From Lentisphaerota bacterium (GTDB lineage: Bacteria; Verrucomicrobiota; Kiritimatiellia; CAIQIC01; Lenti-01), in contig JAAZBB010000039.1 in assembly GCA_012514035.1 (NCBI GenBank), positions 2,137 to 66,136 on the forward strand: a stretch of DNA of 64,000 nucleotides. The letters are read 5' to 3'. How positions within the stretch are numbered: the first letter of the stretch is position 1; each line of letters opens with the position of its first letter. Below, one piece after another: positions 10,986-34,896 of this stretch. The notes under the pieces were generated by a model. The model ran no database searches and was not told the DNA's origin. It saw only the letters and a program-made list of their open reading frames with translations. The position numbers and the translations under genes were made by a program.

Positions 10986-13900
10986 TCAGGGTTCGGAGGC
11001 GGGCTGGTCCGGTTCCGGCAGGGGATAGTCCGCCGGGTTGGCGGGCGGGGTATAGATTCGGCACCAGGCGTCATGCAAGGAGAACAAAATGGCTTTTTCC
11101 TTTTCGGTCCATTGGGCGGTGTAGCGGCGGGCGTGATCGCGGCTGATCCAACAGCCAGGTACCCGCGCAACGGTCGCGTTGAAAATCTTCAGGGCTTGTT
11201 CCTTTTGGCCGGCGGCCCAGTAGGCGAGCGCCAAATGATGGTCTCCGTTCGGGGGGACGGCCTCGTCCAGTTCTCCCATGATTTCCCACTGACGTGCGGC
11301 CTGGTCGTATTCGCCCAGGTTCAAGAGGGCCCAGCCGTAGCTCCAACGGATGTTGGCGACGTCGGGGGCAAGCCGGATGGCTTTTTCGAAATCGCGCCGG
11401 CTGGCTTGGGCATCGCCCCGCATCGCGTAGAGAAAGCCGCGCCAGTGGAGCGCGTTGACGTCATTGGGATTCTTGTCCAGGCGCTCCGTGAAGAAGTCTA
11501 TCTTGGAACGGGGCCGCGGCTCAACGACGCGCGTCGATCGCAACTCCTCGCGTTTACGCGGTTGCTCCTTTGGCGCAGTTTCCGCATTGTTGGCCGCCCG
11601 TGCAAGCGCGCGTTGCCGGCGGCGTTCTGCATAGGACAATCGGGGCTCTGCGGTGGAGCCTTCCGTCGGGACAACCACTTCGTAGCAGGCAATGTCCTGG
11701 TCGATGACCAGCGCCTCGACGCCTTTCCCGGATGGGGCCGGCCGGAAAATCCAGGATCCGCGACAGGCCTGTTCCAGAAGAATGCGTCGTTCCGCATCCA
11801 TGATTTTGAATCCGCCCCGGGAAGCCGTCAGCAGCAGGTCGCGGTTGGGGCCAATGGGCAAAGCGTAGAAATCATCGCGGAATCCACCGCCGGGGTCTTT
11901 TTGGTCCCAGCGCAGTTCGCCGGCATCCGACAGGCAGAGCGATTGCTGCCCGGCAGATCTGAAACTGCGTCCACCGGTATCCGTCTTTGCCACCTCATAG
12001 AGGGATCGGGTGCCGATGGCGCAACCGTGACTGCCATCCTGCAAAAAGACAAAGGAAAACCGGCCGCTTCCCAGGCTTTCTTTGATATCCCTGGCCTCCG
12101 GCGGCAGCGGGATCGTGTGCAGGAGGGTGCCGTCGTCGGCTCGATGGATGAATAACGTGCGGTCGGACGTCAGTGCGAGATGGCGGGGCGGAATGCGCCA
12201 GTCGATTCTGCCCCGGATATAGGATTGGGCCATATGGTCATCGAGTTCCTGCTTCCATTTCAGGCGGAAGAAGCGCGTATCGGGTGGGATCGGGGTGCGG
12301 GTGAAGCCGCAGCGTACTGCCCGCCGCGGGGTCCGGTTGCTGGAGACATCGGCTGGCGCTGACAGCGAGGGGAAATCGCCGGGCATGGGAGCTGGTTTCG
12401 ACACGGCCTCCGTTTTCGCAGCGGCTTTCCACTTTTTCCGGGGGGCGTCGGCCAGTTGTTTTGCTGAGAAGCGCTGGATGCGGGCGAGATAGGGGCTGGT
12501 GGATTGGACGTTGCCGCCGACCACGAATATGTCCTCGCCCAATTGCGCCAGGGCCGCATGCCGGGCCGGCTTGTAGCCGAGGTCGATCCGCGCCCATTTC
12601 TTCTTTTCGAGATCGCAGACGACCGTGCGGTCCAATTCCTCGTAGTCGCCGAACAGATAAAGTTGGCCGTCCAGCACGCAGCCGTGGTACGCGCTGGTCT
12701 TGACGGGCAGCTTGGGCAGTTCGCTCCATTTGTCCTCGGCCGGATCGTAGACCTGGAAATCGCGGAGGGCGGTGGTGCCATCATAGCCGCCTGGGGCGTA
12801 AATTTTGCCGCCCGATTCAAAGACCTGGCCCTCGCGGGCCACAGGGAGATCGGCGCCGCGGGTCCAGGTTTCGGTTTCGATGTCATAGATTTGCACTATC
12901 TTGAAGCGCGGCTCTTCCTCACCTTGAGCGCCGCCGATGACAACCAGCCGGTTGCCCACGACCGCCGCGCCGGCCCGGGAGACTGCCACCGGCAAGTCCG
13001 GCAGCGCCCGAATCGTGCCCGTGGCCGGATCGTATTCCTCGCAGGAAGCGGTCATGATGATGTCGTCTTGGCTGTCGTCCAGCATCAGGCCTCCGACGAT
13101 ATAGATTTTTCCGCCGCCGGCCGCGCCCGCAAAGAAGCGGCGCGGGCGGATGGTGGCGGGCAACGTCTCGGTCGTGTGGGAGTCGGCCGAAAACCGCTCG
13201 ATGGTGCCGACCATGCCGCGGTCGGAATGCCCGCCCAGGACATAGATGGCGTCGTCCACCGCGGCGGCCAGCGATCCAAACCGCTCCGTGGCCAAAGCCA
13301 GCGGTGGCCCCTCCGGACGGGCCTGGTCGAGATAGCGTTCCAGCGTCACGGCCAATCCGCGGTCTGCTGGGTCCGTGGCGACGGCTTTCTTTTGGTATTC
13401 GATGGCCGCGGCGGTTTGGCCGGCGTCCCACAGCGCGCGCGCATAGGTATCGAGGATGTCCGCGCGCTTCTCTTGGGTGGCCTCCAGCACCTTCTTGGCG
13501 AGGTGCGTGGCCAGGGGAATGTCGCGTTCTTCGATCCCGGGGTGGGTCAGGATGGTCCAGGCGATGGCATTCAGATTGTCCGGGCTGTTTATGTCCATCT
13601 GTTCGATTTTCCGCGCCAGGTCAGCAGCCTTTTCGCGATCCCCGTTTGGGCCGACGGCCTCCAGGTAATCCTCGTAGGTTTCTGCGATCCGGCGGGATTC
13701 CGCGGCTTCCCGCCGTTTCATCGCCGCGCGTTCCCGGGCCCGGGCCGGATCAAAATCTCCATCCGCGATTTCCCGGAGGATTTCCTCCAACCCGCTCATC
13801 GGGTGGCCGATCCAGGCGATCGCGCCTTGGTGCACGACGAAGGCCGCGGGGATGCCGCGCTGGCCGGCCGCCTGCATCCACTGCTTCGCCATGAATCCAT

Positions 13901-14285
13901 CTTCGGTATCCATGGCGACGCGATAATCCATCTGGTCGCCCATTTTTTCCACGAAGTCGGCCACCTTGTCTGCCGGTTTCTCGCCGCGTTCCCACACGTT
14001 CATGCCGATGAACATCATGTTCGTGAACTTGTGCGCCAGTTCGGTCAGGCGGGGGATGGAGGCGCGGCACGGCGGGCACCACGTCGCCCAGAACTCGACC
14101 ACACAAGTTTGTTCCGGCTCGAAGCCGGACACGGCCTCGCCCTTGATCCATTTGGATGCCTTCAGTGCGGGTACGGAAGAACCAACGGACAGGTTCGCCG
14201 TCTGCTCGCCGACCTGGGGAATGGCCAGGACGAGCGAGGGCAGGAGCGCCAGCGGAATTCGCAGCAAAGATAAGGGTTTTTTCAT
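10986..14285 (-). CDS. Large secreted multidomain protein of 1100 aa. The domain order is signal peptide, TlpA-like thioredoxin (WATWCPPC), TPR repeats, a Kelch beta-propeller, a second propeller-like region, and C-terminal TPR repeats.
   Basis: CxxC thioredoxin motif and six Kelch-like blades (YVLGG, IYIVGG, LVVIGG, IYAPGG, LYLFG, IFVVGG). The start was placed at MKKPLSLL (14285), which gives a clean signal peptide. Confidence 0.75.
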   Translation of the reverse strand: MKKPLSLLRIPLALLPSLVLAIPQVGEQTANLSVGSSVPALKASKWIKGEAVSGFEPEQTCVVEFWATWCPPCRASIPRLTELAHKFTNMMFIGMNVWERGEKPADKVADFVEKMGDQMDYRVAMDTEDGFMAKQWMQAAGQRGIPAAFVVHQGAIAWIGHPMSGLEEILREIADGDFDPARARERAAMKRREAAESRRIAETYEDYLEAVGPNGDREKAADLARKIEQMDINSPDNLNAIAWTILTHPGIEERDIPLATHLAKKVLEATQEKRADILDTYARALWDAGQTAAAIEYQKKAVATDPADRGLAVTLERYLDQARPEGPPLALATERFGSLAAAVDDAIYVLGGHSDRGMVGTIERFSADSHTTETLPATIRPRRFFAGAAGGGKIYIVGGLMLDDSQDDIIMTASCEEYDPATGTIRALPDLPVAVSRAGAAVVGNRLVVIGGAQGEEEPRFKIVQIYDIETETWTRGADLPVAREGQVFESGGKIYAPGGYDGTTALRDFQVYDPAEDKWSELPKLPVKTSAYHGCVLDGQLYLFGDYEELDRTVVCDLEKKKWARIDLGYKPARHAALAQLGEDIFVVGGNVQSTSPYLARIQRFSAKQLADAPRKKWKAAAKTEAVSKPAPMPGDFPSLSAPADVSSNRTPRRAVRCGFTRTPIPPDTRFFRLKWKQELDDHMAQSYIRGRIDWRIPPRHLALTSDRTLFIHRADDGTLLHTIPLPPEARDIKESLGSGRFSFVFLQDGSHGCAIGTRSLYEVAKTDTGGRSFRSAGQQSLCLSDAGELRWDQKDPGGGFRDDFYALPIGPNRDLLLTASRGGFKIMDAERRILLEQACRGSWIFRPAPSGKGVEALVIDQDIACYEVVVPTEGSTAEPRLSYAERRRQRALARAANNAETAPKEQPRKREELRSTRVVEPRPRSKIDFFTERLDKNPNDVNALHWRGFLYAMRGDAQASRRDFEKAIRLAPDVANIRWSYGWALLNLGEYDQAARQWEIMGELDEAVPPNGDHHLALAYWAAGQKEQALKIFNATVARVPGCWISRDHARRYTAQWTEKEKAILFSLHDAWCRIYTPPANPADYPLPEPDQPASEP

Positions 14286-14571
14286 GGGGCGATTCCTTGC
14301 AGGGGGTGGCAGGATCTCGGACCGCTCCATTAAACTCGAAATCCGACCACGAATCAAGCCGATGCAGCCGGTTCCCTTGTCCGCCTTTTCCTGCGGGCTG
14401 AGGATTGAAGCTGCAACGGCCATACTGAAACACGCGGCACATCCGCACACCCCGTCGCAGAGGCGCCCGGCTGGCCGGCGGCGGGTTTTCCATCTTTACG
14501 GGGCCGGGTAGACGTGGGATTATACCGGCAATTCAGCGCGCCGCCGTGCTGGATGATCGAGGAGTGTATTC

Positions 14572-21071: not shown

Positions 21072-21371
21072 ATGAAGAAACTCATTGCAGGCTTGATGGT
21101 TGGGCTCATGGTGCTGGCGGTGACGGCACCGGCGGCGGATGCGGCGGCGAAGGGCGCCGGACGGGGCGGTTTCGTGGGCTTCATCGCCGGTTGCTGCTTC
21201 GGGATCCGGTCGGGTTCGGCCTTTAACGACGGCAAGGAAATCCACTTCCGCGAGTGGTGCCGGCTGATCCCCTACGTGAACATCGTATTTGCCATCTGGG
21301 ATGGCGTCGATGGTGCCAAGGGCACGACCACGGCCGACCTGGCTTCCCAGTACGGCGCGACCTACTACTAA
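21072..21371 (+). CDS. Small membrane or exported protein (99 aa), paralog A. It contains a GF(V/I)xGCCFGIRSGxA(F/Y)NDGK motif.
   Basis: ACAGGAGAA Shine-Dalgarno upstream. Signal peptide or transmembrane segment at the N-terminus. It is about 60% identical to the next gene. Confidence 0.5.
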   Translation: MKKLIAGLMVGLMVLAVTAPAADAAAKGAGRGGFVGFIAGCCFGIRSGSAFNDGKEIHFREWCRLIPYVNIVFAIWDGVDGAKGTTTADLASQYGATYY

Positions 21372-21396: not shown

Positions 21397-21687
21397 ATGA
21401 AGAAAATGGTTGCCGGTCTCTTGGTTGTGCTGTTCGTCCTGATGTCATTCGCCCCCGCGGTTTCCGCTGCCGGCGAACGGGGCGGTGTCCTGGGCTTCGT
21501 TTTTGGCTGCTGCTTCGGCATTCGTTCCGGGGCCGCCTACAACGACGGCAAGGATCTGCACTGGCGCGAATGGGTATTGGTGGTGCCGATCGCCGGCTGG
21601 GTCGTGGCGATCCTGAACGGCCTGGACGGCATGAATGGCTTGACCACGAAAGACATGGCCGCCCAATACGGCGCCAACTTCTACTAA
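21397..21687 (+). CDS. Small membrane or exported protein (96 aa), paralog B of the previous gene.
   Basis: Identical ACAGGAGAA Shine-Dalgarno. It shares the GCCFGIRSG and QYGAxxY blocks with paralog A. Confidence 0.5.
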   Translation: MKKMVAGLLVVLFVLMSFAPAVSAAGERGGVLGFVFGCCFGIRSGAAYNDGKDLHWREWVLVVPIAGWVVAILNGLDGMNGLTTKDMAAQYGANFY

Positions 21688-21692
21688 CCCGC

Positions 21693-22541
21693 ATGTCCGT
21701 CCCGCGGACAGCGGCGCACAAGATTCCGGGCCTGGCGCCCGGAATCTTTTTTTTCGGGCTGTCGCTGGCGGCGGCGGCCGCACCTCTTGACCTTGCCGTG
21801 GATCTGTTCGCGGAAGGCCAGTGGGCCGCGGCGCGCACGGAGGCCCGGCGCGTTCAAACGCATGCCGTCGCGGCCGAAGCCGACCGCGCCCGGCTGCTCG
21901 CGGCGATTTCCGCCTTGCGGCTGAATCCGGGGGACGAATCGGCCCGGGCTGACCTGGCCGCACTCTGGCAGGCTCCCGCGGCCGACCTGGAGACCCGCTG
22001 CATGGCGGCTTATGAGTTCGGCCTGGCCGACTGGGCCGCGGGCGGCGCGCAGGCTCCTGCGGCCCTCGAATTCGCTTTTTTGCAGACCCGCCAGGTGCCG
22101 CTGTTCTGGCGCGCGGGCTGCTCGTTGTATTTCTACTTGAAAGCCGACCGGCGGTTGCGCAAGGAGAAGGCGGCTGTCTGGCAATCGCTGCAGAGCTGCC
22201 GGGATGCCTGGCCGCTGGAGGTGTGGCGGGAATGCCGGCCGCGCCGTCCGGCGGGCCATTCGCTCGGTTCCCGGCCCGGCAAATGGATCGTCCAATTCTA
22301 CCGTGCGCAGATCGCCCCGGCCATCGGCGCCCGTTGCGACCTCGAGCCGAGCTGCTCGGAGTATTTTCAACAGGCCAGCCGCGCGCACGGCCTGCTCGGC
22401 ATTCCCCTCATGGCCGACCGCTTTGTCCGCGAGCCTTCCGTGGTAGCGGCGAAGGAAAAGCCGGTGGAAATGCCTGGCGGCGGCATCCGCTATGCCGATC
22501 CGGTCTCCGACCATGATTTCTGGCTGAAGGGGACGCCATGA
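21693..22541 (+). CDS. Fusion protein. An N-terminal exported domain is joined to a C-terminal YidD (membrane protein insertion efficiency factor) domain.
   Basis: C-terminal CDLEPSCSEYFQQASRAHGLLGIPLMADRFVRE plus GGIRYADPV matches the YidD signature. The N-terminal domain is paralogous to the next gene. Confidence 0.6.
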   Translation: MSVPRTAAHKIPGLAPGIFFFGLSLAAAAAPLDLAVDLFAEGQWAAARTEARRVQTHAVAAEADRARLLAAISALRLNPGDESARADLAALWQAPAADLETRCMAAYEFGLADWAAGGAQAPAALEFAFLQTRQVPLFWRAGCSLYFYLKADRRLRKEKAAVWQSLQSCRDAWPLEVWRECRPRRPAGHSLGSRPGKWIVQFYRAQIAPAIGARCDLEPSCSEYFQQASRAHGLLGIPLMADRFVREPSVVAAKEKPVEMPGGGIRYADPVSDHDFWLKGTP

Positions 22542-22608: not shown

Positions 22609-22712
22609 TTTTCCACACTGTGGAAAAATATTTTCCACACTGTGGAAAAAACACCCCCTATTTTTCCACACAATGGAAAAAATTTTCGGCGATTTTCCAC
22701 ACAATGGAAAAA
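22609..22712. repeat. Array A. Four palindromic 19-20-bp units: TTTTCCACACTGTGGAAAA (x2) and TTTTCCACACAATGGAAAA (x2), spaced 22, 31 and 31 bp apart. Each unit is a pair of DnaA-box-like half-sites (TTWTNCACA).
   Basis: Direct reading. The array is a reverse-complement copy of the one at 59748-59830. Confidence 0.75.
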
Positions 22713-22816
22713 TATTTCGTGAATCATGCGGGCCCGGCTTTTCTGTAGGCCGGGTCGGTGACCCGGCGGTTTTCTGGCCCGGTTGTTGCCGCGCCCGTTG
22801 GGCGCGGGGATTCGGG

Positions 22817-23883: not shown

Positions 23884-24570
23884 ATGAAGAGGATCGGGTT
23901 GGCGGGGTTGGTGTTCATGGGGTTGGTGCTCACGGCAAGCGCCCAGTACGGGCGGGGATCCCTGGAAGGCGATGAAGGGTTGGGCCGGGCGCCGTTGCCT
24001 AAGCCCAGCGATGACACCTTCTTCGGCGGCGGGACCTGGGGCGTGAAGGCCGGGCTGGGTTGGGCCTTCCTCGACTGGGAACTGGGGGCGGCGGAAGGGT
24101 CGGATAATCAATTCGTGCCGCAGGGCTCCGTGTTCTACAAGGCGACCGACAACCTTGATTTCAACCTCTCGGCGATGTTCGTGTCCGGCGAGGACGAGGA
24201 CGACGAGCTGGGCGACACCGATGCCGACCTCGCGCGGCTGGCGCTGGGCGTGCGCTACTGGTTCGACACGCAGTCGCGGTTCGTGCCGTACCTGGGCGCG
24301 GGCATCGGCTACTACATCGTGGACGGTTCGACGGACAACACCCGCGAAGACGGAGTGGTGGTTCCCGCCAGCGGCATTTCGGTGGATAACTGCCCCGGGG
24401 CGTTTGTGGAGGGCGGCGTCGCGTATCAGATTGCCGACAACTTCTTTGTCACTGCCGAGGCCACCTATGACTTCCTGCTGGGTTCGGCCGACGCCAAGAT
24501 CAACGGGGAAGACGAGGACTTCAAGGTGAGTTCCCTGGCCATCGGGCTGGGGGTGGCCTTCATGTTCTAG
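23884..24570 (+). CDS. Outer-membrane beta-barrel protein (OmpA/OmpW-like small barrel).
   Basis: Signal peptide, alternating amphipathic beta-strands and a C-terminal Phe (VAFMF). It is the first gene of the 13-gene exported-protein operon. Confidence 0.6.
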   Translation: MKRIGLAGLVFMGLVLTASAQYGRGSLEGDEGLGRAPLPKPSDDTFFGGGTWGVKAGLGWAFLDWELGAAEGSDNQFVPQGSVFYKATDNLDFNLSAMFVSGEDEDDELGDTDADLARLALGVRYWFDTQSRFVPYLGAGIGYYIVDGSTDNTREDGVVVPASGISVDNCPGAFVEGGVAYQIADNFFVTAEATYDFLLGSADAKINGEDEDFKVSSLAIGLGVAFMF

Positions 24571-24589: not shown

Positions 24590-25801
24590 ATGAAAAAGAA
24601 AATATTTGTCACGGTGGGATTGGGGGCCCTGCTTTTACTGGGGGCCTGCGTTCTGGCGCCCTTTGGCGGAGCCGAAACCCTCGCACAGGAGGATGAATCC
24701 GCACGCGACCACGTCAAGATCGAGATGCCGGGTCCTGGCGGCACGGAAATCACGGTCGTGGAAGGCACCGAGACCACCGAAGAAGAGGGTTACGTCGAAG
24801 CCACCAAGGTCACGACCAATACCGTCCGGGTGCCGGTCAAGACCGTGACCAAGGTGGTGGAAGTGCCCGTAGGGCTTTCCCAGCCCCACAAGGCGCGCCT
24901 GGCCGTCCTGCCGGCGATCTTCTCGGAGCATTTCCATCCGGTCTTCAAGTTCAGCGAACAACTGGAAATGTCCGGACAGATGGACCTCAAGATGGTCTTC
25001 ACCCGTGAGCAGGAATCGCGCATGGAGGCGCCGAGCTTCACGCTCTCGCTGAACGAGGCCTTCGTCAAGTCGCGCAAGTTCGACGTGCTGGAACGGGGCC
25101 GCCTGGCCGAAACGCTGCAGGAGATTGATTTCGGCGAGAGCGACTACGCGGATCCCTCCAAAGTCGTGCCGATGGGGCTGGCCCAGAACGCGGAATACGT
25201 GGTGCTGCCGGAAATCGAGGTCATTCATCTGGTGACGGAACTGAAGGAAATTCCCTACGTGGACACCGTGAAGCCCATCCTGAAGGGCAAGATGATTGCC
25301 CGCCTGCGCGTGGTGGACACCGCCACCACGAAGGTAGCCGCCGCCTGCCGCGAAGAGGTGGCGGTCGAACGGAAGCTCAAGGCCAACAATCCGTTCATCC
25401 AGTCGGAAGGCATGAACCTGATCATGGACTTATACGAGACCGCCAGCCTGCGGCTGCTGCACCGCACGCTGGAGGCCATCTATCCGGTCAAGCTCATGAA
25501 GGTGGAGGAGGGGCGGGCGTTCCTCAACCGGGGCGAGGGGGCCATTGCGGTGGGCGATGAATTCGAGATCTATACGCTGGGCCAGGAACTGGTGGACCCG
25601 GACACCAACGAGTCATTGGGCTCCAGCGAGACCCGCGTGGCCCTGCTGCGCGTGTCCCGCGTGGCGCCCAAGTTCGCCGAGGCCGAGATTGTCGAAGGGG
25701 CGGAAGCCATGACGGGCGATGTGCGGGCGTTCGTCTGCCGCGAATCCGCGCAATCCATCGCGGCCAAGACGACGGTTTCGCCCCGCTCGATGAACTGGTA
25801 G
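24590..25801 (+). CDS. Lipoprotein with a CsgG/LpoB-fold central domain.
   Basis: Lipobox LLGAC. The central block (FVKSRKFDVLERGRLAETLQEIDFGE...GLAQNAEYVVLPEI...ARLRVVDTATT) matches the CsgG/LpoB/TolB-N-like pattern. Confidence 0.55.
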   Translation: MKKKIFVTVGLGALLLLGACVLAPFGGAETLAQEDESARDHVKIEMPGPGGTEITVVEGTETTEEEGYVEATKVTTNTVRVPVKTVTKVVEVPVGLSQPHKARLAVLPAIFSEHFHPVFKFSEQLEMSGQMDLKMVFTREQESRMEAPSFTLSLNEAFVKSRKFDVLERGRLAETLQEIDFGESDYADPSKVVPMGLAQNAEYVVLPEIEVIHLVTELKEIPYVDTVKPILKGKMIARLRVVDTATTKVAAACREEVAVERKLKANNPFIQSEGMNLIMDLYETASLRLLHRTLEAIYPVKLMKVEEGRAFLNRGEGAIAVGDEFEIYTLGQELVDPDTNESLGSSETRVALLRVSRVAPKFAEAEIVEGAEAMTGDVRAFVCRESAQSIAAKTTVSPRSMNW

Positions 25802-25820
25802 CCGGAACGAGGAGAACAAG

Positions 25821-26240
25821 ATGAACATGCGCATGGTGTTGTTGGCGGCGGCCCTGGCGGGCGCCGTCCTGGCGGGGGGCTGCATTTCCTCGGCGCCCCA
25901 GGAGGTGGAATTCGACGACGGGATCTATACCGTCAAGTCGCACTCCCTGACGTTGCGGCAGCATGTCCGGCTGACCCGCCGGACGGTGGACTTCAACAAA
26001 AACGGCTTCCTGCAGGCGCAGATCGAGGCCGTCAACCTGGGCCGCAAGGATGTCCAGTTCCAATACCGGTTCCGCTGGCTGAACGAGCAGAAGATGCTCA
26101 TCCCTGCAGCGACGGCGATCTGGAAGCCGGTTTCCGTGGGGGCCCGTTCGACGGAGTACTTCACCTCGACGGCGCCGACGACCGACGCCCGGGACTTCTT
26201 CATGGAAGTCCGGTTCGTGCACGATTCCACCCGCTGGTAA
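25821..26240 (+). CDS. YcfL-like (DUF1425) small lipoprotein.
   Basis: Lipobox LAGGC. VQFQYRFRWLNEQKM aligns with E. coli YcfL (VHVHYRFYWYDAKG). Confidence 0.55.
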   Translation: MNMRMVLLAAALAGAVLAGGCISSAPQEVEFDDGIYTVKSHSLTLRQHVRLTRRTVDFNKNGFLQAQIEAVNLGRKDVQFQYRFRWLNEQKMLIPAATAIWKPVSVGARSTEYFTSTAPTTDARDFFMEVRFVHDSTRW

Positions 26241-26250
26241 GGAGAAGCCG

Positions 26251-26865
26251 ATGAAACAGCTACCCATGGGTTTGATTGCGGTTCTGTGCGTGCTGGCGCT
26301 GGCGGGATGCGTGACTCCCCCGCGCGGAGATTATGTTCCCACCAGCGAGCCGGGCATCTCCTCGACCGCCCCCCGGCCGCATGACGTGCGGCTGGCCGTG
26401 ACGGAGATCGTGGACTCGATGTTCAACGAGTGGGATTTTGCCTCGCAGGCGGCCGGCAAGATGCCGTACATCGCGTTTTCGGGGATCGAAAATCAAACCC
26501 CGTACAACTGGAACCAAGATGAAATCGTTGGCTGGATCGAGGAGTCCGTCGTGCGCACCGGGAAGGCGACCTTCTCGAACGCGACGGATCCGAACCGGCG
26601 CGGCGGTCGCTCGGGCCAGTTGTATCGGCAGATCGACTTCCAGGATCCGGACAACGAATACGTGGACCAGTCGACGGCCGTGAAGAAGGGCGGGATTCAA
26701 GGCGCGGACTACGAGCTCTTCGGGCGCATCTACACGTATGAGGAGCTGCGCTCCGGACGGATCACGGAGGCCAACTACGTGATCGAAATGACCCTGTCCA
26801 GCCTGCGGACGGGCGGGACGGTGTGGAAGAAGATGGTTCCGATCCGCAAGAACGTGCGGCGCTGA
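26251..26865 (+). CDS. LpoB-like lipoprotein (fold of the penicillin-binding-protein activator LpoB).
   Basis: Lipobox LAGC, a disordered Pro-rich linker, and a C-domain that aligns with E. coli LpoB (ENQTPYNW...GKATFSNAT; GADYELFGRIYTYEE...EMTLSSLRTGGTVWKK). Confidence 0.6.
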   Translation: MKQLPMGLIAVLCVLALAGCVTPPRGDYVPTSEPGISSTAPRPHDVRLAVTEIVDSMFNEWDFASQAAGKMPYIAFSGIENQTPYNWNQDEIVGWIEESVVRTGKATFSNATDPNRRGGRSGQLYRQIDFQDPDNEYVDQSTAVKKGGIQGADYELFGRIYTYEELRSGRITEANYVIEMTLSSLRTGGTVWKKMVPIRKNVRR

Positions 26866-26877
26866 TCCGGCGGATTC

Positions 26878-27537
26878 ATGTCGCCGGCCCAACGGCTTGT
26901 TCGCAACACCACTGGCACATGCCGGAAGGGCGGCGCCTTTCTTTGCCTGGGGCGCGGGCTGCTGGTCTGGGGGGGCGTGCTGCTGGCGGCCGGCTGCGCT
27001 TCGACCACGCTGAACCGGCCGCGCGATTTCGGCGCGGTGGTGGGGCGGGAGCCGGCATCCATCGCGCTGGGCGAGATCCGCGACAACGTCGCCTGCGACG
27101 ACGAAGCCTTCTATCTCCAGCGCTATCTGGAAGGCCAGCGGGTGTTCTACGATTGCGTGCTGGCGGACCGGTCGGATGTCCGGGCCTATCACGGGGCGGA
27201 CCTGATCGTCTCCGGCAAGATCGCCCCCGCCATCCAGACCCGGCGCCTGGGGTGGGGCGTCTTCGCGTCCTGGATCACGCTGGGCGGATACTACCTGCTC
27301 GGCGGGCCCACCCGGGAACAGGAAGTCCGGATCGCCTATGACTTCGAAGTGGAGTACGCCGATTCGGGCCAATCCCGAAACTACCGGTTCGAAGATGTGC
27401 GGCAGGCGACCTTCGGGCTCTACGGGCCGGGCATCAATCTGGATCAAAAGCCCGGGGTTTATATACCCGGCTGGGAACGGCTGCTCTACGAAATCTGCAA
27501 GGAAACGAAAGTCCAGCGGGCGGGGCGGGCACCATGA
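26878..27537 (+). CDS. Hypothetical lipoprotein.
   Basis: Lipobox LAAGC. The stop overlaps the next start (ATGA). Confidence 0.45.
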   Translation: MSPAQRLVRNTTGTCRKGGAFLCLGRGLLVWGGVLLAAGCASTTLNRPRDFGAVVGREPASIALGEIRDNVACDDEAFYLQRYLEGQRVFYDCVLADRSDVRAYHGADLIVSGKIAPAIQTRRLGWGVFASWITLGGYYLLGGPTREQEVRIAYDFEVEYADSGQSRNYRFEDVRQATFGLYGPGINLDQKPGVYIPGWERLLYEICKETKVQRAGRAP

Positions 27538-28859
27538 ACCGGGCTGTCCGGCACATCCTGCGGGTTCTGATCCTTCCCGGCCTGGCGCTGGGTTTTTCCG
27601 CCGGCTGCACCTCCCTGCCGGCCTCGGCCCGGCGCGATGCCTTGTACAACCAGCAACAATATCCGGAAATCCGCGAACTGGCGGTGGACGATCTCGCCAT
27701 CCTGGGTCAATACGACCGGGCGGGTTGTGTTGCGGGCACGGTGACGGCCGGGGGGCAGGTCTTTGATTCGCAATATTACGACATGGCCGAGGAGGTCCGC
27801 AGCCTGACGCCCCAGGCCTACTTCGACATGGCGCGCGTGTCGCTGGACATGGGACGTTACCTCGATGCCATCCGCGCCGCCCAGAACGCCATCGAATCGG
27901 GCGCCATGTTCCTCGGGGATGATGAATGGGTGTTCCAGCGGATGATGAGCCTGCGGGAGAACCACAACATCCTCTACAAAGCCTACCTGTATTGCGGGGA
28001 TCTCGACAAGGCGGCCGTCCACCATCGGCAATACCTGTTGATGAACGAGCTGGTGAACAGCCAGGCTTTCAAGAAAGTCATGGCCAATTCCCTGCGCATC
28101 CGCATGACTTCGATGCGGCTGCGGTCGGACTATCAGGCCCGGCGGGCCGGCGCCAACCGGAACCAGGTTCTGATTGCCGCTGCAACCGTGGCCGCCGCCG
28201 CCGCCGCGAGCCAGAACAACTCGTCGTTCAAACCCGCACAAGCCGCCCAACTGGCGCAAATCGGCGTGATGGCCGTGGCCCTGCTGGAGGAATACAAGCA
28301 GGCCTTGAAATTGGAGCACAACCTCGATTTGGCCAAGCTGATGCGTGAGGCGGCCGACCTCAACCGTCTGCCCCCGCCGACGGCGGAAGACCTGCGCCGC
28401 GCCAAGATGGCGTCCGACCTTTATCTTCTGGCGCGGGTTTCCGATCCCGGCAGCGCGCTGGACCAGGCCGAATTTGACGATCTCAAGCGGCTGGGAGCGG
28501 GTACGAGCGACCTGGTGACGTTGTCCATTGACGACAAGGGGCGCGTTCATGTGTCCGGCAACCTGGCCAAGCTGGTGGAGCTCTCGCGCAAGATCGACGA
28601 GGCGCCGCTGCGGCTGCCGCCGCCCCCCGAGGAAGGCGTGGACGCCTATCTCGACACCTATTTGACACCGGGACTCTACCGCATGGCCGGATTGCAGATG
28701 TCCACGGGCGAAATGCAGTTCTTCGACCGGCTCGTGCGCCGGGGCGGGGAGGAATTCGTGATCGACCCCGCGCAGGCCGAGGGCCAGATGGCCCTCCAGG
28801 GCCTCCACAAGATGATGCAGAAGACAACGGAATTCGAATCCTGGATCGCCTCGCTGTGA
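27534..28859 (+). CDS. Hypothetical lipoprotein of 441 aa with TPR-like helical regions.
   Basis: Lipobox FSAGC. Translationally coupled on both sides. Confidence 0.5.
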   Translation: MNRAVRHILRVLILPGLALGFSAGCTSLPASARRDALYNQQQYPEIRELAVDDLAILGQYDRAGCVAGTVTAGGQVFDSQYYDMAEEVRSLTPQAYFDMARVSLDMGRYLDAIRAAQNAIESGAMFLGDDEWVFQRMMSLRENHNILYKAYLYCGDLDKAAVHHRQYLLMNELVNSQAFKKVMANSLRIRMTSMRLRSDYQARRAGANRNQVLIAAATVAAAAAASQNNSSFKPAQAAQLAQIGVMAVALLEEYKQALKLEHNLDLAKLMREAADLNRLPPPTAEDLRRAKMASDLYLLARVSDPGSALDQAEFDDLKRLGAGTSDLVTLSIDDKGRVHVSGNLAKLVELSRKIDEAPLRLPPPPEEGVDAYLDTYLTPGLYRMAGLQMSTGEMQFFDRLVRRGGEEFVIDPAQAEGQMALQGLHKMMQKTTEFESWIASL

Positions 28860-29479
28860 AAACCAGACGGGACAACCAGACGCGGGCCGTGCAACCGGTG
28901 CAGACCGACCGTTGGCGGCGTGCCGCCCGGACGCTGGCGGCTCTGGTGCTGGGGTGGATCTGCGGCTGCGCCCATACCCAGCCGCTGGTGGAGCCGGCCA
29001 GGTTCCCGGATACTCCCAAGAACTACCGGGTCGGCATCGCCGGCCTCTTTGACGTGAATCATTTCGATTATGCCCCGGTCATGGTGGACGAAGTGCGGCG
29101 GCACCGGGTCTTCACGGGCGTGGAGCTGACCCCGGATCTCGCGGCCCCCGATTGCGACTATGTCATCCGCGGGCATTTCGGTTTTTACCAGGTCGAGACC
29201 AAGAATTCCTTCCACTTCACGTCGATCTATTTCTTCGGCCTGCCCCTGCTGACGGGGTTGCCCAATACGAACCACGACGGGGGCATCGACATCAATTTCG
29301 AAATCTACCACCGCGGCACGCTGCTGAAGACCTACGGCTACCGGGATGTGTTCCGGGATCAGCGGAGCTACCTGACCGTTTGGGATTCCACATCGCTGGA
29401 CCTCGAATTGCGCCGGATGGTCCGTCTGCTGCTCCGGGACGTCTGGAAGGATTTCTTCGGCCACAAGGGGGCGGCATGA
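28856..29479 (+). CDS. Hypothetical lipoprotein.
   Basis: Lipobox WICGC. GTG start that overlaps the upstream stop (GTGA). Confidence 0.45.
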   Translation: MKTRRDNQTRAVQPVQTDRWRRAARTLAALVLGWICGCAHTQPLVEPARFPDTPKNYRVGIAGLFDVNHFDYAPVMVDEVRRHRVFTGVELTPDLAAPDCDYVIRGHFGFYQVETKNSFHFTSIYFFGLPLLTGLPNTNHDGGIDINFEIYHRGTLLKTYGYRDVFRDQRSYLTVWDSTSLDLELRRMVRLLLRDVWKDFFGHKGAA

Positions 29480-30075
29480 TTTTCCGGCTGGCCGCCATCC
29501 TGATGCTTGTGCTGGCCGCAGGTTGCGCGACGAACCTGCAAAAAGGCGACAAAATGCTGGCGATGGGCCGCTATGCGGACGCCCGCCGGTTCTACCAGAC
29601 GGAACTGGACCTGCAGCGCGAAGCGGCTGAACTGCCCCGCTGGACCGGCCAGGAGTACCAGTATCAATTCAACGCCCGCGATGCCGCGCAGGCCATCCTG
29701 GGCGTGGGCCGTAGCTTCGAAAAACAGGATCAGCCGGGTCCGGCCCTCTATCACTATTCCTATTTCACCCAGTTTGCGCTGCGGCACGGGCTGGATGCCG
29801 GCCGGGAAATCAAGGCGATCGAACAATGGATCCGGGAATCCGGCCGCCCGCCCCCGAAAACGGAATCGGACGAGGTGGGGGTGCAGGCGCTGACGGAATC
29901 CAGGAAGCCGGCGGTGCGTTCGGCGCCGGTCGTGGCGCCCGCGCGGAAAGCCGGCAAGCCGACGGCCGCAAGACCGCCAGCCGCCCCGCGCGCGGCCTCC
30001 GTTCCGGCGGATGCACAGAAACCGGCAACGGCAACGGAAACAGACGGGAATGAATCAGATGTCATCTTTTGGTAA
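29476..30075 (+). CDS. Hypothetical lipoprotein with a Pro/Ala-rich C-terminal tail.
   Basis: Lipobox LAAGC. ATGA overlap with the upstream gene. Confidence 0.45.
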   Translation: MIFRLAAILMLVLAAGCATNLQKGDKMLAMGRYADARRFYQTELDLQREAAELPRWTGQEYQYQFNARDAAQAILGVGRSFEKQDQPGPALYHYSYFTQFALRHGLDAGREIKAIEQWIRESGRPPPKTESDEVGVQALTESRKPAVRSAPVVAPARKAGKPTAARPPAAPRAASVPADAQKPATATETDGNESDVIFW

Positions 30076-30913
30076 AGACGGGACACTGCTGCTGCTGGTG
30101 ATCGCCTTGTGCGGGTGCGCGACGCCCCGCGCCTCGGTGCAGCCGGGACTGGATTGCCAGGAACGCGGTGAATATCAAAAGGCTTACGAGTATTTCCAGA
30201 ACCTGGCCCGCCAGCATCCGCGCCAGCTCGAGTTGCAGACCTATGTGGACACGGCCCGCGGCCTGGCGTTCCGGCAGGCGGCCGGGCAGGCCCAGAAGGC
30301 CCTGCAGCGGGGCGATCTGGAGGGCTTCCTGCAGGGGATGAAGCAGGCCAATGCCATCCAACCCGGTGAAAAAGTGCAAGCGGTCATCCAACTGGTGGAG
30401 GCGGCGCGCCTGAAGGGCAATACGGATGCCGAAATCCGCGAGGAACTGTCCCGATCCATGCGCGCCGGCGAACGGCAGAGCCTGCAGCAGGCGCTGCAGG
30501 AGACCGCGGAAATCATCGGCCGGCAGATGCTCGATGGTCGCATCGGCAGTCCCATGGCGGTGCTGAACTTCACCCTCGAAGGTGCTGCCGCCCGGGAATC
30601 CGCCGCCGCTTATTTCGAGAATGCCCTGTCCGAGGCGCTGCTCGGCAACCGCATTGCGATCGTCGAACGGAAAAGAATGGGCGAGGTGATGAAGGAGATT
30701 GCCCTGGCGGGGACGGGTCTGGGGGAGTCCGGCCAGATGGTGCAGGCCGGCCAGCTGACCGGGGCGCTGTCCGTCGCCGCCGGCAACGTTTACCTGTCTG
30801 AATCGGGCGGGAAATACCAGGTCCGGGTGATTGACGTCGAAACGGGGCAGGTCGTCTGGCAGGAGTCACGCGATTTCATGCCTGGAAAGGACATGCTATG
30901 GCTGGGCAGATGA
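30050..30913 (+). CDS. Lipoprotein with a C-terminal CsgG/LpoB-fold domain.
   Basis: Lipobox LCGC. SPMAVLNFT...IAIVERKRMGEVMKEIALAGTGL...GALSVAAGNVYL...QVRVIDVETGQVVW matches the CsgG/LpoB/FlgO-type signature. Confidence 0.55.
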   Translation: MNQMSSFGKDGTLLLLVIALCGCATPRASVQPGLDCQERGEYQKAYEYFQNLARQHPRQLELQTYVDTARGLAFRQAAGQAQKALQRGDLEGFLQGMKQANAIQPGEKVQAVIQLVEAARLKGNTDAEIREELSRSMRAGERQSLQQALQETAEIIGRQMLDGRIGSPMAVLNFTLEGAAARESAAAYFENALSEALLGNRIAIVERKRMGEVMKEIALAGTGLGESGQMVQAGQLTGALSVAAGNVYLSESGGKYQVRVIDVETGQVVWQESRDFMPGKDMLWLGR

Positions 30914-31818
30914 ATAAGTTGTCACGACTTTGCGGGTTCCGGCCCGCCGTATTCCGGGCGGCGGCCTCTCTGGCCCTGGCGCTGGCCGCTGCCGCGGGTG
31001 CCGTTGAACCGCCGGCCTGGTGGAACAATCCCAATCCCGGAACGGCCGAACTGATTTATGAAAGAGGATCCGCAAGCGGATGCCGAACAGAACAGGAAGC
31101 GTGGCACAGGGCATATGACGCCGGATTGGCAATGATCCGGAAGCGAATCACCGATGATACCAATCTCTGGTCCCGGCTCCATCTGGTCGGGACGGACTTT
31201 GCCTTTGACAAGGTGGATCAGGATGCCCTCGGCCGTTGGCATGCCTGGGCGCTGGTTTCCTATCCCAGATCACAATTCGAAACGGCTTTGGCCCGGGCGC
31301 AGGCGGCGGCGGATAAAGGTGCCGAACGTACCCCGATCTATGTGGCTCCGGTTTCATTCGGTCCGGACTCGGAGGAACAGTTTCCCGAGGTTGTGGCGAA
31401 ATACAAGGCCCTGGGCTATGGAAATGCCATTTGGCAGACGGTGGAGGATCTGCTGTATGACCACGGATACGAAATCGTGACCGCTCCCGCGTCCCAAACC
31501 AAAAGCATGCTGGAGCAGATTCTCGGCCAGTTCTCCGCAGATACCGGCGGCCGCGACATCAAACTTCCGGAACTGCTGCTGCTTTGCAACATGAACTTCT
31601 TTGAGGTGAAGACCGAACGCCTTTCCCTGGGAACCCTGGCGCGGAATCAGGAGTATCATGCCGAACTGCTTCTGGAGTTGTACGAGGTCACGGCCCCGCA
31701 CACCAACGTGAAGATTCCCGCCAAAGGCGAGGCCCGGGACAAGGATTTGCTTGCCGCGATTCAGCAGGCGGCGAAGCAGGCCGTGGAGAAACTAGTGGAG
31801 CGCGTTCGAACCAAATGA
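30910..31818 (+). CDS. Secreted protein with an N-terminal EPPAWWNNP motif (LPP20/FlgP-like start).
   Basis: Signal peptide. Paralogous N-terminus to the gene at 33727. ATGA overlap with the previous gene. Confidence 0.45.
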   Translation: MNKLSRLCGFRPAVFRAAASLALALAAAAGAVEPPAWWNNPNPGTAELIYERGSASGCRTEQEAWHRAYDAGLAMIRKRITDDTNLWSRLHLVGTDFAFDKVDQDALGRWHAWALVSYPRSQFETALARAQAAADKGAERTPIYVAPVSFGPDSEEQFPEVVAKYKALGYGNAIWQTVEDLLYDHGYEIVTAPASQTKSMLEQILGQFSADTGGRDIKLPELLLLCNMNFFEVKTERLSLGTLARNQEYHAELLLELYEVTAPHTNVKIPAKGEARDKDLLAAIQQAAKQAVEKLVERVRTK

Positions 31819-32558
31819 ACACATTACGGACAAGCCGGACTCGAGCCGGCATGGCTGGCATCCTGGCGCTTTTCGCGTGCGGATGCGGCGGAATGCAGCA
31901 GCCTCGCCTGGCGGAGCAACTATCCCCGGCCCGGACGCCGGGGGCTCCAGCGGAGAGCATGCCCGTCGTGGTGGGCACTGTCACGGCCCATGTTGAACAA
32001 CCGGCGGATCTGCAGGACGCTGTCTGCCGCTATCTCCGCGACCAGACGGCCGCGGCCATCGCTCGCCATGACGCGTTTGTCCTGGTGCAGACAAACGCGC
32101 CGACGGACTTGCTGTCCGGGTTTGGCGTTGTCACAGCCTCGGCGACGGAGTCGGCCGTTTCCCCGGTGGCCGCCTTTGACGTCGAGGTGCTCCGGATCGA
32201 AGAGAAACTCGGAGCCACGGTCAAGGTCGGGCTGGCCTCCAAACAGCAGAAGCAGGCCGTATGCGAGGTCAAGATCATCATGCGCAGCCTGACCGGGGAC
32301 AGGAATCTGGAAAGCCGTCAAATCGGCAAAGCCGCGAAAGGGGCATGGGGAATCATCGCCGCAGTGGATCGGGACGCCATGAAAGGCGGGGCAGGGGCCT
32401 GGGATATGGACGGCAGCATGATCGGCCTGGCCTGTGCCGACGCCGTGCAAGCCGGGATCAAAAGTATAGAGAAACAAATCCGCCTGCGGTCCATAAAACA
32501 TGGGCAGGGAGTTGAACAGCGGTTGCTAAAGCCGCGCACCGTGATACCAAACAGATAA
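31815..32558 (+). CDS. Hypothetical lipoprotein.
   Basis: Lipobox LFACGC. ATGA overlap with the previous gene. Confidence 0.45.
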   Translation: MNTLRTSRTRAGMAGILALFACGCGGMQQPRLAEQLSPARTPGAPAESMPVVVGTVTAHVEQPADLQDAVCRYLRDQTAAAIARHDAFVLVQTNAPTDLLSGFGVVTASATESAVSPVAAFDVEVLRIEEKLGATVKVGLASKQQKQAVCEVKIIMRSLTGDRNLESRQIGKAAKGAWGIIAAVDRDAMKGGAGAWDMDGSMIGLACADAVQAGIKSIEKQIRLRSIKHGQGVEQRLLKPRTVIPNR

Positions 32559-32576
32559 AACAAGGAGTATGAGATT

Positions 32577-33611
32577 ATGCAGAGAAAAACAAAGGCACAG
32601 TGGACACTCGGGATTGCCATTGGAGTATTCAGTCTTGTTTCCATGGGATGGGCCGCGCCCATTGGTTATGTGGATCCCGATGGATATGAATGTGTCGCCC
32701 CCTGTCCTTATGCGGATCATACACAATGTCCAGAGCCTGCTGAGGACTGGCGCTACGTTGGACGAACGAGCGAGACAAGTACCACGGCTGCAGGAGGTGG
32801 GCAACCGGCGGCCAGTTCAAGCATTGCCGTCAACCAAGTGATCCGCAAGAATATTCTGGTTACAGCCCAGCCAGCGGCCAAGCCGCGGAAACAGGCTCCG
32901 GCGGCGCAACCCGCAGCGGCCCCGGAGGCGGAGACCAAACCGGCCCCGTTCTACGAACAGATGCCGGGGATGGGACGGCTGAGTTCCGGTTCAGCGGATA
33001 TGTTTTACAACAAATGGGAAGTGGGTGAAAGCGACGGTTCCACCATCGGGTTCAATCCTTCGATCACGTGGGGAGAGGAAGCGGAATTGACCTTGACAGC
33101 CCCCCTGCATCTGATTCTTCCTGACGAAGGCGATAACATTTTCGCGGTGGGACTGGACGGGGCATACAAACGGCCGCTGACCGGAAAACTGGATAAATTT
33201 GCCGCCGGCGTGCACGCCTACGGGATGGGATATTTCGGCGGGGATGATACGGCCAGCAACTTTGGCGGTGGTCCGTTTCTGTCTTGGACCTATCGGATCG
33301 ATCCCAAGTGGCTGGCGTCGGCGGGCGGTTTGCTGGAGATCACCAAGCCGGATGAAGGGGATACGTTCGTGGAAATCGTACCGGCCGTGAATCTGGGCTA
33401 CAACGTTTCCGACGACCTGGCCTTGAACGCCTATGTCATCTATTACAAGAATCTGGACAGCGACGTGGACGATGATGCCTATGCCGACCTCGGCCTCGAT
33501 GTCCAATGGATCAAAGGCGGCTGGGCGCTGGCAGGTGGCATCAAGACATCGGCCGGGCTGGACAATGTGGATTCCACCGAAATCCATTTGGGCTCCAGTT
33601 GGATCTTTTAA
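32577..33611 (+). CDS. Outer-membrane beta-barrel protein, the second barrel of the operon.
   Basis: Signal peptide, a Gly/aromatic-rich beta-strand pattern and a C-terminal SSWIF. Confidence 0.5.
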   Translation: MQRKTKAQWTLGIAIGVFSLVSMGWAAPIGYVDPDGYECVAPCPYADHTQCPEPAEDWRYVGRTSETSTTAAGGGQPAASSSIAVNQVIRKNILVTAQPAAKPRKQAPAAQPAAAPEAETKPAPFYEQMPGMGRLSSGSADMFYNKWEVGESDGSTIGFNPSITWGEEAELTLTAPLHLILPDEGDNIFAVGLDGAYKRPLTGKLDKFAAGVHAYGMGYFGGDDTASNFGGGPFLSWTYRIDPKWLASAGGLLEITKPDEGDTFVEIVPAVNLGYNVSDDLALNAYVIYYKNLDSDVDDDAYADLGLDVQWIKGGWALAGGIKTSAGLDNVDSTEIHLGSSWIF

Positions 33612-33726: not shown

Positions 33727-34896
33727 ATGATGGACTCTACGATCCGGAATGCCACCGGGAAATGGCTGATTCTGGCCGTGGCCCTTTTCCTGCGATGGGC
33801 GGGAGGGGCCGCGGCCGAACCGCCGGGCTGGTGGAGCAATCCCCGCCGGCATGACGAGGAACATTTGTATTTCAAGGCCAAGGGGGAGAGCGCGGTGTCC
33901 GAGCAGGCGGCGCGCATGGACGCGCTGGAAGGGGTGAAGCGGCTGGTGGAGGAATACCTCGAGGCATCGGGGCCGGTCTCGGCCGGCACGAAGCTGCATG
34001 GCGTCGAAGTCTATGCCGAAACCGCCGAACGAGAGCCCGGGGGGAAGTGGGCGGTCTATATGCTGGGCCGCTATCCCGTGGCGGAATACGAGAAGATCCG
34101 GGGGCGGATCGAATCCGCCGAAGCACTGCGGGAGAATTGGGCCCTGGTCCAGTCGGAACTGGCCCGCAACGAATATTCCAAGGCCGAAGCGCGCCTCAAG
34201 GCGATCATTCGCAGCTATGACCAGTCGCTGTCCCCCGGATTTGCATTGGAAGGCGTGAAACTGGCTTTGGCGGGCCTGTACCGCAAGCTGGATCCTCCGG
34301 CCATACTGGAAGCGCGGAAGTGGATTCAAGATGTGCGGCACACCACGCCCGAGCCCGGTTGGCGCCGACAGGCGGAGGACATGGAACGAGCGTTGCCCGC
34401 AATTTCCCTGCGCGATGCCTTCGGCCCCCGCAAGGTGGGGCTGTTTTGCGTGATCCGCAATGCGGAACCCGTTCGGGTTGCGCCGGAGCTGATGACCGAA
34501 GCGGTCGCGCGGCTGGCCCGCGATGGCGTGGAGGCGGTCCGCCTGGAGCCTGCGGATTTGGCCGCCGCCGCGGCGTTATTCGAAGGGGGCGGTGCCGTAC
34601 CTCTGCTGGCCGCCGCCCGGGCGGTCGGGGCGGATGCCGTCCTGGCCATTCTGGTGGCGATCGATCCCGCCAAAACGGGAAAAACGGAGGTGCATTTCGA
34701 CGTGCCAACGCCCGTTCTGGATGCCACGACCTTTTATCAGGTTATCCGCGCGTCGGATGGGAAGGTGCTCTGTTCGGACAAGACCCAGGGGCTGTCCGGT
34801 TCCGGGATCGGCAAACTCCTCAGCCCGGTTTTCGCCCACCGCAACCATTTGCCCAAACATGCGGCAGCCATCGCCGAGGCCTGGTCCGGGCCTTGA
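33727..34896 (+). CDS. Secreted protein with an N-terminal EPPGWWSNP motif, paralogous to the gene at 30910. It is the last gene of the operon.
   Basis: Signal peptide plus the shared motif. A hairpin follows the gene. Confidence 0.45.
   Translation: MMDSTIRNATGKWLILAVALFLRWAGGAAAEPPGWWSNPRRHDEEHLYFKAKGESAVSEQAARMDALEGVKRLVEEYLEASGPVSAGTKLHGVEVYAETAEREPGGKWAVYMLGRYPVAEYEKIRGRIESAEALRENWALVQSELARNEYSKAEARLKAIIRSYDQSLSPGFALEGVKLALAGLYRKLDPPAILEARKWIQDVRHTTPEPGWRRQAEDMERALPAISLRDAFGPRKVGLFCVIRNAEPVRVAPELMTEAVARLARDGVEAVRLEPADLAAAAALFEGGGAVPLLAAARAVGADAVLAILVAIDPAKTGKTEVHFDVPTPVLDATTFYQVIRASDGKVLCSDKTQGLSGSGIGKLLSPVFAHRNHLPKHAAAIAEAWSGP

Follow-up and report, generated by a model that had tools for sequence, protein, structure and literature searches.

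A window of 64,000 nucleotides (the whole stretch of contig JAAZBB010000039.1, assembly GCA_012514035.1, that was analysed) from an uncultured bacterium of the Kiritimatiellia encodes two adjacent lipoproteins. Judged by profile searches, they truly belong to the YcfL (DUF1425) and LpoB (PF13036) families, in which they are divergent members distant from the E. coli proteins. In E. coli, LpoB activates PBP1b from the outer membrane. As far as gene neighbourhoods tell, the pairing of a DUF1425 gene with an LpoB-family gene is the normal context of the family, common across bacteria and no special trait of this genome, and the evidence leans against the LpoB-like protein of the window working as an E. 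coli-like LpoB. We consider it moderately probable that the two proteins form, together with a FlgT/CsgG-like lipoprotein and a small outer-membrane barrel encoded upstream, an outer-membrane-proximal periplasmic complex for envelope integrity or organisation. The genes are new as divergent members; the families and their arrangement are already known, and public pipelines already label them.

Two lipoprotein genes of the YcfL and LpoB families

Both genes lie on the forward strand (Table 1) with a gap of 10 nt between them, and each is preceded by an AGGAG Shine–Dalgarno-like sequence. In E. coli K-12 ycfL and lpoB (b1104-b1105) follow each other in the identical order with a 13-nt gap, which confirms the E. 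coli-like gene order noted in the initial annotation of the window. The window copies of both proteins were found as exact matches on more than 100 public contigs; at NCBI the exact-match proteins stem from metagenome-assembled genomes (MAGs) of Kiritimatiellia, mainly from anaerobic digesters. Relatives at 55–89% identity keep the synteny. Because of the exact matches and the retained synteny the two open reading frames (ORFs) are regarded as real genes. Long reverse-strand ORFs across the pair (25524-26267 and 26260-27447) are most likely artefacts of the high GC content. The host, an uncultured member of the Kiritimatiellia (Planctomycetes–Verrucomicrobia–Chlamydiae, PVC, group) with a GC content of ~64%, is indeed the phylogenetically distant high-GC organism for which it had been taken.

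The upstream protein of 139 amino acids (aa) has the N-terminus MNMRMVLLAAALAGAVLAGGC with a lipobox-bearing signal peptide (…VLAGG-C). Its match to Pfam PF07233 (DUF1425) reaches 45.1 bits (cutoff 28.3; E 9.5e-12), and with the solved DUF1425 structure 3o0l phmmer gave an E-value of 0.014. The YxFxW motif of the family is present: Y82, F84, and W86 are nearly invariant among 54 aligned sequences, and the motif reads YRFRWLN in the window protein, where N replaces the D of most members. All features looked for in a YcfL/DUF1425 protein are thus found, namely the score, the lipobox, the Y-x-F-x-W motif, and a seat directly upstream of an LpoB-family gene. An identical protein is labelled 'YcfL family protein [Kiritimatiellia bacterium]' at NCBI. 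The YcfL-like identity had been proposed from an alignment of the window peptide VQFQYRFRWLNEQK with E. coli YcfL; the window peptide was quoted exactly, whereas the E. coli peptide had been misremembered as VHVHYRFYWYDAKG and in reality reads VTVHYRFYWYDARG.

The downstream protein of 204 aa (N-terminus MKQLPMGLIAVLCVLALAGC) likewise carries a lipobox-bearing signal peptide (…LALAG-C), followed by a 24-aa N-terminal segment and an alpha/beta domain of ~160 aa. Residues 45-195 match Pfam PF13036 (LpoB) with 59.6 bits (cutoff 22.3, E 4.3e-16). The profile check therefore gave significant matches for both families that the initial annotation had named. An AlphaFold2 (AF2) model was built from 12 close homologs, with a predicted local distance difference test (pLDDT) value of 70. 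The best Foldseek matches of this model in the PDB were the LpoB C-domains (4q6l, E 1e-7; 4q6z, E 7e-7; template-modelling (TM) score 0.58 on the target), and the structural comparison that had been suggested thus also spoke for an LpoB-like protein. GNA1162, FlgT, PelC, CT253, CsgG, HpaA, and TolB-N followed, one to three orders of magnitude behind. With Vibrio FlgT (the H-ring protein, 3w1e and 8z5n), CsgG, PelC, and GNA1162 the LpoB-like protein and the 403-aa lipoprotein encoded upstream (see below) share an alpha/beta fold of the LpoB/TolB-N/CsgG type, and the LpoB-like model matches these structures with E-values of 1e-6 to 1e-4. No match was returned by phmmer when the LpoB-like protein was searched against the PDB sequences. 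Membership in the broad LpoB family (PF13036) is shown by the Pfam score, the lipobox, the LpoB-type alpha/beta fold, and a score of 172 bits with a profile of the family (see below).

The pair resembles E. coli ycfL-lpoB in the Pfam families, the gene order, the tight spacing, the lipoprotein nature of both products, and the LpoB C-domain being the best structural match. Pairwise similarity is low in contrast, since BLASTP of the window proteins with E. coli YcfL and LpoB gave only marginal E-values of 0.037 and 0.048, and therefore the homology rests on the profile searches. A chance similarity of the pair to YcfL and LpoB was considered and rejected in view of the Pfam E-values for both proteins and the conserved synteny.

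The LpoB family and its gene neighbourhoods

Membership in the broad family does not extend to the narrower definition of LpoB. The NCBI equivalog model TIGR02722 scores the 204-aa protein with 78.5 bits, below its cutoff of 110.55, and for this reason an identical protein is labelled 'hypothetical' at NCBI. The pipelines of the JGI label relatives 'LpoB' (PBP1b-binding outer membrane lipoprotein) or 'TIGR02722 family'. Using word-indexed homolog searches we found the own subfamily of the protein to be narrow, comprising 16 clusters. With the profile of this subfamily, E. coli LpoB was missed (1.1 bits). The window protein differs from E. coli LpoB also in a subfamily-specific insertion containing GGRSG (residues 118-122, invariant in the subfamily as is F157) and in a longer beta-hairpin.

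A further difference concerns the N-terminal segment. Counted from the lipid-anchor Cys20 to the conserved D45, the segment of the window protein (VTPPRGDYVPTSEPGISSTAPRPH) has 24 aa including 6 prolines, compared with 58 aa including 16 prolines in E. coli LpoB. The Pro-rich disordered linker described in the initial annotation therefore exists, yet it is short and partly invariant: P24, E33-P34-G35, D45, and R47 in or near the segment are invariant within the subfamily. For this reason the segment looks functional and more than a mere spacer.

To place these features we made use of a profile search over 1.84 billion representative sequences (E <= 1e-3). The 304 family clusters recovered are nearly all lipoproteins of ~200 aa which are matched end to end. 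TIGR02722 was matched by each of the 134 representatives tested, with scores running continuously from 34 to 218 bits. E. coli LpoB has the score of 218 bits, and the short-linker relatives P0026, P0022, and P0024 reach 195, 138, and 136 bits. From the lipobox cysteine to the conserved, nearly invariant Asp with which helix 1 begins, the median distance is 24 aa; 110 of 112 representatives fall between 15 and 31 aa, and long segments occur only in E. coli LpoB (58 aa) and in one other protein (68 aa). With a profile made from the family representatives, the window protein ranked 85th of 134 (172 bits) and E. coli LpoB came last (86 bits). Subject to the sampling, which was centred on the window subfamily, the sequence comparison shows the window protein as an ordinary family member and E. 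coli LpoB as the outlier.

We then considered the gene neighbourhoods of the family. With a five-sequence alignment as query, 80 metagenomic loci (L007-L086) around mainstream LpoB-family genes were collected, in 64 of which the upstream region could be analysed. An ORF of 128-179 aa is situated directly upstream of the LpoB-family gene in 52 of the 64 loci. When these 52 ORFs were scanned along with the proteins of the window and of E. coli, Pfam DUF1425 was matched by 51 of the 54 sequences, so that a DUF1425 gene directly precedes the LpoB-family gene in 49-50 of the 64 loci. Twelve loci lack the DUF1425 gene. One gene further upstream, about 50 of the 64 loci encode a lipoprotein of ~470 aa; of the 55 such sequences scanned, 22 gave a match with Pfam TPR models. 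The downstream gene codes for a glycine-zipper (Rick_17kDa_Anti) lipoprotein in 23 of 45 loci and for a ~421-aa protein matching the CsgG, FlgT_M, and LpoB models in 7 of 45. A module of four to five genes recurs in these loci: the ~470-aa TPR lipoprotein, the DUF1425 protein, the LpoB-family protein, and then either the glycine-zipper lipoprotein or the ~421-aa CsgG/FlgT_M-like protein. A PBP gene adjoining the LpoB-family gene was found in none of the loci examined.

A similar arrangement is known from Campylobacter jejuni, where an operon comprises cj0089 (453 aa, TPR), cj0090 (122 aa), and cj0091 (207 aa, LpoB-family), and Cj0091 is associated with the outer membrane (PMC3100323). Judged by its size and position, Cj0090 would belong to DUF1425. 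The order of a large, a small, and an LpoB-family lipoprotein is the same as in the window (403, 139, and 204 aa) and in the ~50 metagenome loci, the difference being that the large partner is a TPR protein in C. jejuni and FlgT/CsgG-like in the window. Loss of HP0018, the Helicobacter pylori homolog of Cj0089, leads to hypervesiculation; in other Helicobacter species its gene shows synteny with that of the LpoB homolog HP1457 (PMC11394524). The initial annotation had regarded the finding of the pair in a distant organism as worthy of note; the metagenome loci and cj0090-cj0091 speak for an ordinary family context instead.

The genes around the pair

The surroundings of the pair differ from those in E. 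coli. There, the neighbours are hinT, thiK, and nagZ, whereas in the window they are the barrel gene, the gene for the FlgT/CsgG-like lipoprotein, and many other lipoprotein genes (Table 1). Between 23884 and 33611 the genes overlap or leave gaps of no more than 32 nt; a spacer of 115 nt precedes the gene that comes next. A convincing internal terminator was not found in this region. These observations are consistent with the genes from 23884 onward forming one operon, and the long, tightly packed lipoprotein operon of the initial annotation was borne out.

Table 1. Genes of the conserved core and the genes inserted into it, with positions in the window
Feature	Position	Strand	Evidence
Small outer-membrane beta-barrel (OmpW/OMP_b-brl-like), 228 aa, first core gene	23884..24570	+	Pfam
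FlgT/CsgG-like lipoprotein (tentative), 403 aa, lipobox LLGAC	24590..25801	+	Pfam, Foldseek, phmmer
YcfL/DUF1425-family lipoprotein, 139 aa	25821..26240	+	Pfam PF07233, lipobox LAGGC
LpoB-family (PF13036 / TIGR02722-like) lipoprotein, 204 aa	26251..26865	+	Pfam LpoB, lipobox LAGC
Eight secreted-protein genes (219, 441, 207, 199, 284, 306, 235, 344 aa)	26878..33611	+	ORFs; lipobox in at least 6
389-aa secreted protein, conserved downstream core partner	33727..34896	+	tblastn in L005, L006

The 228-aa barrel protein matches Pfam OMP_b-brl with 49.3 bits and OmpW with 36.4 bits, and the relative L006 has a homolog in the corresponding place (56% identity in tblastn). In L003 (6303-8320; GCA_040770285.1), a MAG with an identical pair, a DDE_Tnp_1 transposase insertion splits the barrel gene that precedes the core (191 aa, transposase, 78 aa).

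The 403-aa lipoprotein falls slightly short of the Pfam CsgG model (PF03783; 20.3 bits, cutoff 20.8), and only profile positions 44-96 of 210 are covered. FlgT_C and LpoB gave additional weak Pfam matches. Some relatives of the protein do carry a PF03783 match, and NCBI labels relatives 'CsgG/HfaB family protein'. An AF2 model with a pLDDT of 58.6, poor in the N-terminal half, matched FlgT (3w1e) and the LPHT ring (8z5n) in Foldseek with E-values of ~4e-13, CsgG and HpaA being far behind at ~1e-5. The FlgT match of this low-confidence model spans ~313 aligned columns with a TM-score of ~0.25, and the assignment as FlgT-like is tentative. In the comparison with Vibrio FlgT and the ring-forming lipoproteins the TM-scores are low, and the window protein has no flagellar context. 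By phmmer the protein is homologous to the ~421-aa proteins encoded directly downstream of LpoB-family genes in the seven loci mentioned above (E 1e-9 to 1e-13); a homolog in the locus L056 is situated upstream of the pair. A TPR-type third partner among the window proteins was also considered and rejected: hhalign gave probabilities of at most 32%, with the signal peptides alone aligned.

Homologs of the eight secreted proteins encoded downstream of the pair were found by tblastn in neither L005 (80% identity) nor L006 (55%). In both relatives the homolog of the 389-aa gene comes immediately after the LpoB-like gene. The eight genes are thus missing from relatives that retain the core, and they represent a lineage-specific insertion into, or expansion of, a conserved core. 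L006 has the gene order outer-membrane barrel, CsgG-like, DUF1425, LpoB-like, 389-aa homolog; the contig of L005 ends just upstream and retains the CsgG-like, DUF1425, and LpoB-like genes and the 389-aa homolog. The core is also conserved on the contig carrying P0015. One product of the inserted genes, the 284-aa protein, bears a weak resemblance to LpoB at its C-terminus (Pfam E 0.007; hhalign 86%). The 306-aa protein (30898-31818) and the 389-aa protein have in common an N-terminal domain of ~90 aa starting with EPPxWWxNP (BLASTP E 2e-8). Pfam gave no match for this domain, which may be akin to LPP20/FlgP-type domains.

Several features upstream of the core were recorded. Two paralogous genes (21072-21371 and 21397-21687; 99 and 96 aa) encode proteins with signal peptides and the motif GFxxGCCFGIRSG…REW. 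The strongest terminator-like hairpin of the region, a 12-bp stem followed by a T-run, is situated 3' of these paralogs at 21720-21748. At 21693-22541 a protein of 282 aa is encoded in which a C-terminal YidD (membrane-protein insertion efficiency factor) domain is fused to an N-terminal region of ~190 aa. In L005 the homologs of this fusion gene and of the gene following it are located downstream of the core, unlike their upstream seat in the window. The AT-rich gap between the end of the YidD-fusion gene (22541) and a gene of 325 aa contains four palindromic boxes of ~19 nt (22609-22719) with the sequence TTTTCCACA(CTG/CAA)TGGAAAA(A) and start-to-start spacings of 22, 31, and 31 nt. By its sequence this looks like a putative operator array for a dimeric regulator. 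More distant are an ORF of 1154 aa on the reverse strand (10986-14450) with a thioredoxin/AhpC-like domain, a Kelch beta-propeller, and TPR repeats, and a housekeeping region (37072-63732) coding for EF-Tu, rpoB, rpoC, pyruvate phosphate dikinase, an Ogt-like methyltransferase, and a partial dcw cluster (murG, murC, ddl, ftsQ, ftsA).

Possible roles of the pair

From the LpoB-like protein the initial annotation had gone on to a peptidoglycan-synthase-regulating module. The protein could indeed be a true functional LpoB, that is, an outer-membrane lipoprotein stimulating the glycosyltransferase and transpeptidase (GT/TP) activity of a class A penicillin-binding protein (PBP) of the Kiritimatiellia, with YcfL as an accessory. 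Its Pfam LpoB score above the threshold, the LpoB C-domain as best structural match, and the automated JGI annotation of close relatives as PBP1b-binding LpoB agree with this. So does the fitness loss of Klebsiella ycfL, lpoB, and mrcB transposon mutants, all of which were less fit under cefiderocol, the ycfL effect being possibly polar (PMC13436387). The Klebsiella and E. coli transposon-sequencing data on ycfL do not separate polar effects from a function of its own.

The features in which the protein departs from a functional LpoB are the equivalog score, the long disordered linker, and the conservation of residues in contact with PBP1b. E. coli LpoB is ~145 Å long and crosses the periplasm and the wall to reach the UB2H domain (PMC9593243; PMC3060616). 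LpoP, an unrelated activator from Pseudomonas, has ~127 disordered residues (20-146; PMC7267771). Compared with these proven activators the 24-aa segment of the window protein is short. Five residues of E. coli LpoB (S157, A164, Y178, S180, and E201) affect the binding or activation of PBP1b, and loop 1 comprises the residues 110-117 (PMC12279963). In our alignment S157, S180, and E201 are replaced by E136, R159, and G189, the last being a variable position in the window subfamily; Y178 is conservatively exchanged for F157, and A164 is kept as A143. D106, R111, and M195, likewise regarded as contact residues of E. coli LpoB, align to S77, Q82, and S183. Only N110, T112, and A164 among the compared positions are kept, and all three are conserved family-wide. 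The PBP1b-contact residues of E. coli LpoB are thus mostly replaced in the window protein, changes that a co-evolved partner could tolerate. Furthermore, Typas et al. reported LpoB and the UB2H docking domain to be restricted to enterobacteria under stringent cutoffs, i.e. to be enterobacterial innovations (PMC3060616), and E. coli LpoB is invisible to the profile of the window subfamily. No class A PBP is encoded within the 64-kb window, and a literature search on UB2H in Verrucomicrobia and on PBPs in Kiritimatiellia gave nothing usable. The step from the LpoB family to a regulator of peptidoglycan synthesis is therefore unsupported by the equivalog score, the short segment, the replaced contact residues, the subfamily profile, and the reported enterobacterial restriction, and we regard a functional LpoB as unlikely.

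A different explanation would be a channel for export or anchoring, similar to CsgG, HfaB, or PelC, in which the 403-aa protein forms a ring, the LpoB-like and DUF1425 proteins serve as periplasmic adaptors, and the eight inserted lipoproteins are cargo or accessory proteins. It draws on the contact of the 403-aa protein and several of its relatives with Pfam CsgG, on the 'CsgG/HfaB family' label of relatives, on the ring-forming CsgG, PelC, and FlgT among the structural neighbours of both models, and on the downstream genes, which mostly encode lipoproteins or otherwise secreted proteins. The CsgG match is however partial and slightly under the cutoff, the best fold match FlgT is a scaffold and not a channel, genes for substrates or synthesis of the curli, holdfast, or Pel type were not found in the cluster, and the eight-gene block is missing from relatives that retain the core. 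We consider such a channel quite unlikely. A role in adhesion at the cell surface, which has been suggested for C. jejuni Cj0091, could appeal to the outer-membrane association of that protein, but surface exposure of Cj0091 could not be shown in the same study (PMC3100323). The idea stems from a mis-named COG ('SpaP adhesin'), the Cj0091 phenotype is possibly an indirect envelope defect, and the host of the window is a free-living bacterium of anaerobic digesters. This last explanation is hardly credible.

We favour the envelope complex introduced at the outset. The YcfL and LpoB genes would make up a two-gene cassette of ancient origin that goes with most genes of the LpoB family. In this Kiritimatiellia genome the cassette would form the centre of a conserved, co-transcribed core of an OmpW-like barrel, a FlgT/CsgG-like protein, the DUF1425 and LpoB-like proteins, and the 389-aa secreted protein, into which eight lineage-specific genes would have been inserted in the window genome. 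Both proteins of the pair would be lipid-anchored, most likely at the inner face of the outer membrane, and would join the small barrel and the FlgT/CsgG-like lipoprotein in an outer-membrane-proximal complex serving the envelope. The LpoB-like protein would then not be a periplasm-spanning activator of the E. coli type that docks on the UB2H domain of PBP1b; the role as UB2H-docking activator looks like a later specialisation within the enterobacterial branch with long linkers.

Several points weigh against this envelope complex. The sequences show family membership, gene coupling, and recurrent partners, while the complex as such, its location in the cell, and its physiological role are inferred, and the FlgT-like assignment of the 403-aa protein rests on the low-confidence model (pLDDT 58.6, TM-score ~0.25). 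Activation of PBP1b is the sole biochemically defined function in the LpoB family. A loop conserved family-wide, V-D/N-x-x-T-A-x-x-x-G (residues 138-147 in the window protein), corresponds to loop 2 of E. coli LpoB, which is a PBP1b contact, and therefore a conserved PBP-directed role is conceivable. An interface that co-evolved with a divergent PBP would not retain the E. coli residues in any case. As murG, murC, ddl, ftsQ, and ftsA are present in the window (55.2-63.7 kb), the organism makes peptidoglycan. These last observations, the loop and the peptidoglycan synthesis genes of the host, speak at the same time for a functional LpoB. Finally, both samples are biased: the 64 loci all come from one P0100-like subfamily, and the family representatives were chosen by similarity to the window subfamily.

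The locus alone changes little, as automated pipelines already apply 'YcfL family protein' and 'LpoB / TIGR02722 family' to such proteins. A caution follows for the label 'LpoB', which outside the enterobacteria should not imply an activator of PBP1b. The coupling of LpoB-family proteins to YcfL and a few other lipoproteins also offers a testable partner for YcfL. For the family as a whole, we tentatively propose, as a possible though doubtful extension, that the ancestral role of LpoB-family proteins was not PBP1b activation but membership, together with YcfL, in an outer-membrane lipoprotein complex whose other parts would be TPR (HP0018/Cj0089-type), FlgT/CsgG-like, and glycine-zipper lipoproteins. 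E. coli LpoB would in that case be a late exaptation, and the Kiritimatiellia cluster an expanded version that builds an outer-membrane-proximal periplasmic scaffold. The pattern in the family, with YcfL as constant partner and short N-terminal segments as the rule, leads to a testable hypothesis on YcfL and on the origin of LpoB, and it suggests that E. coli LpoB is an unusual descendant of an envelope module of greater age.

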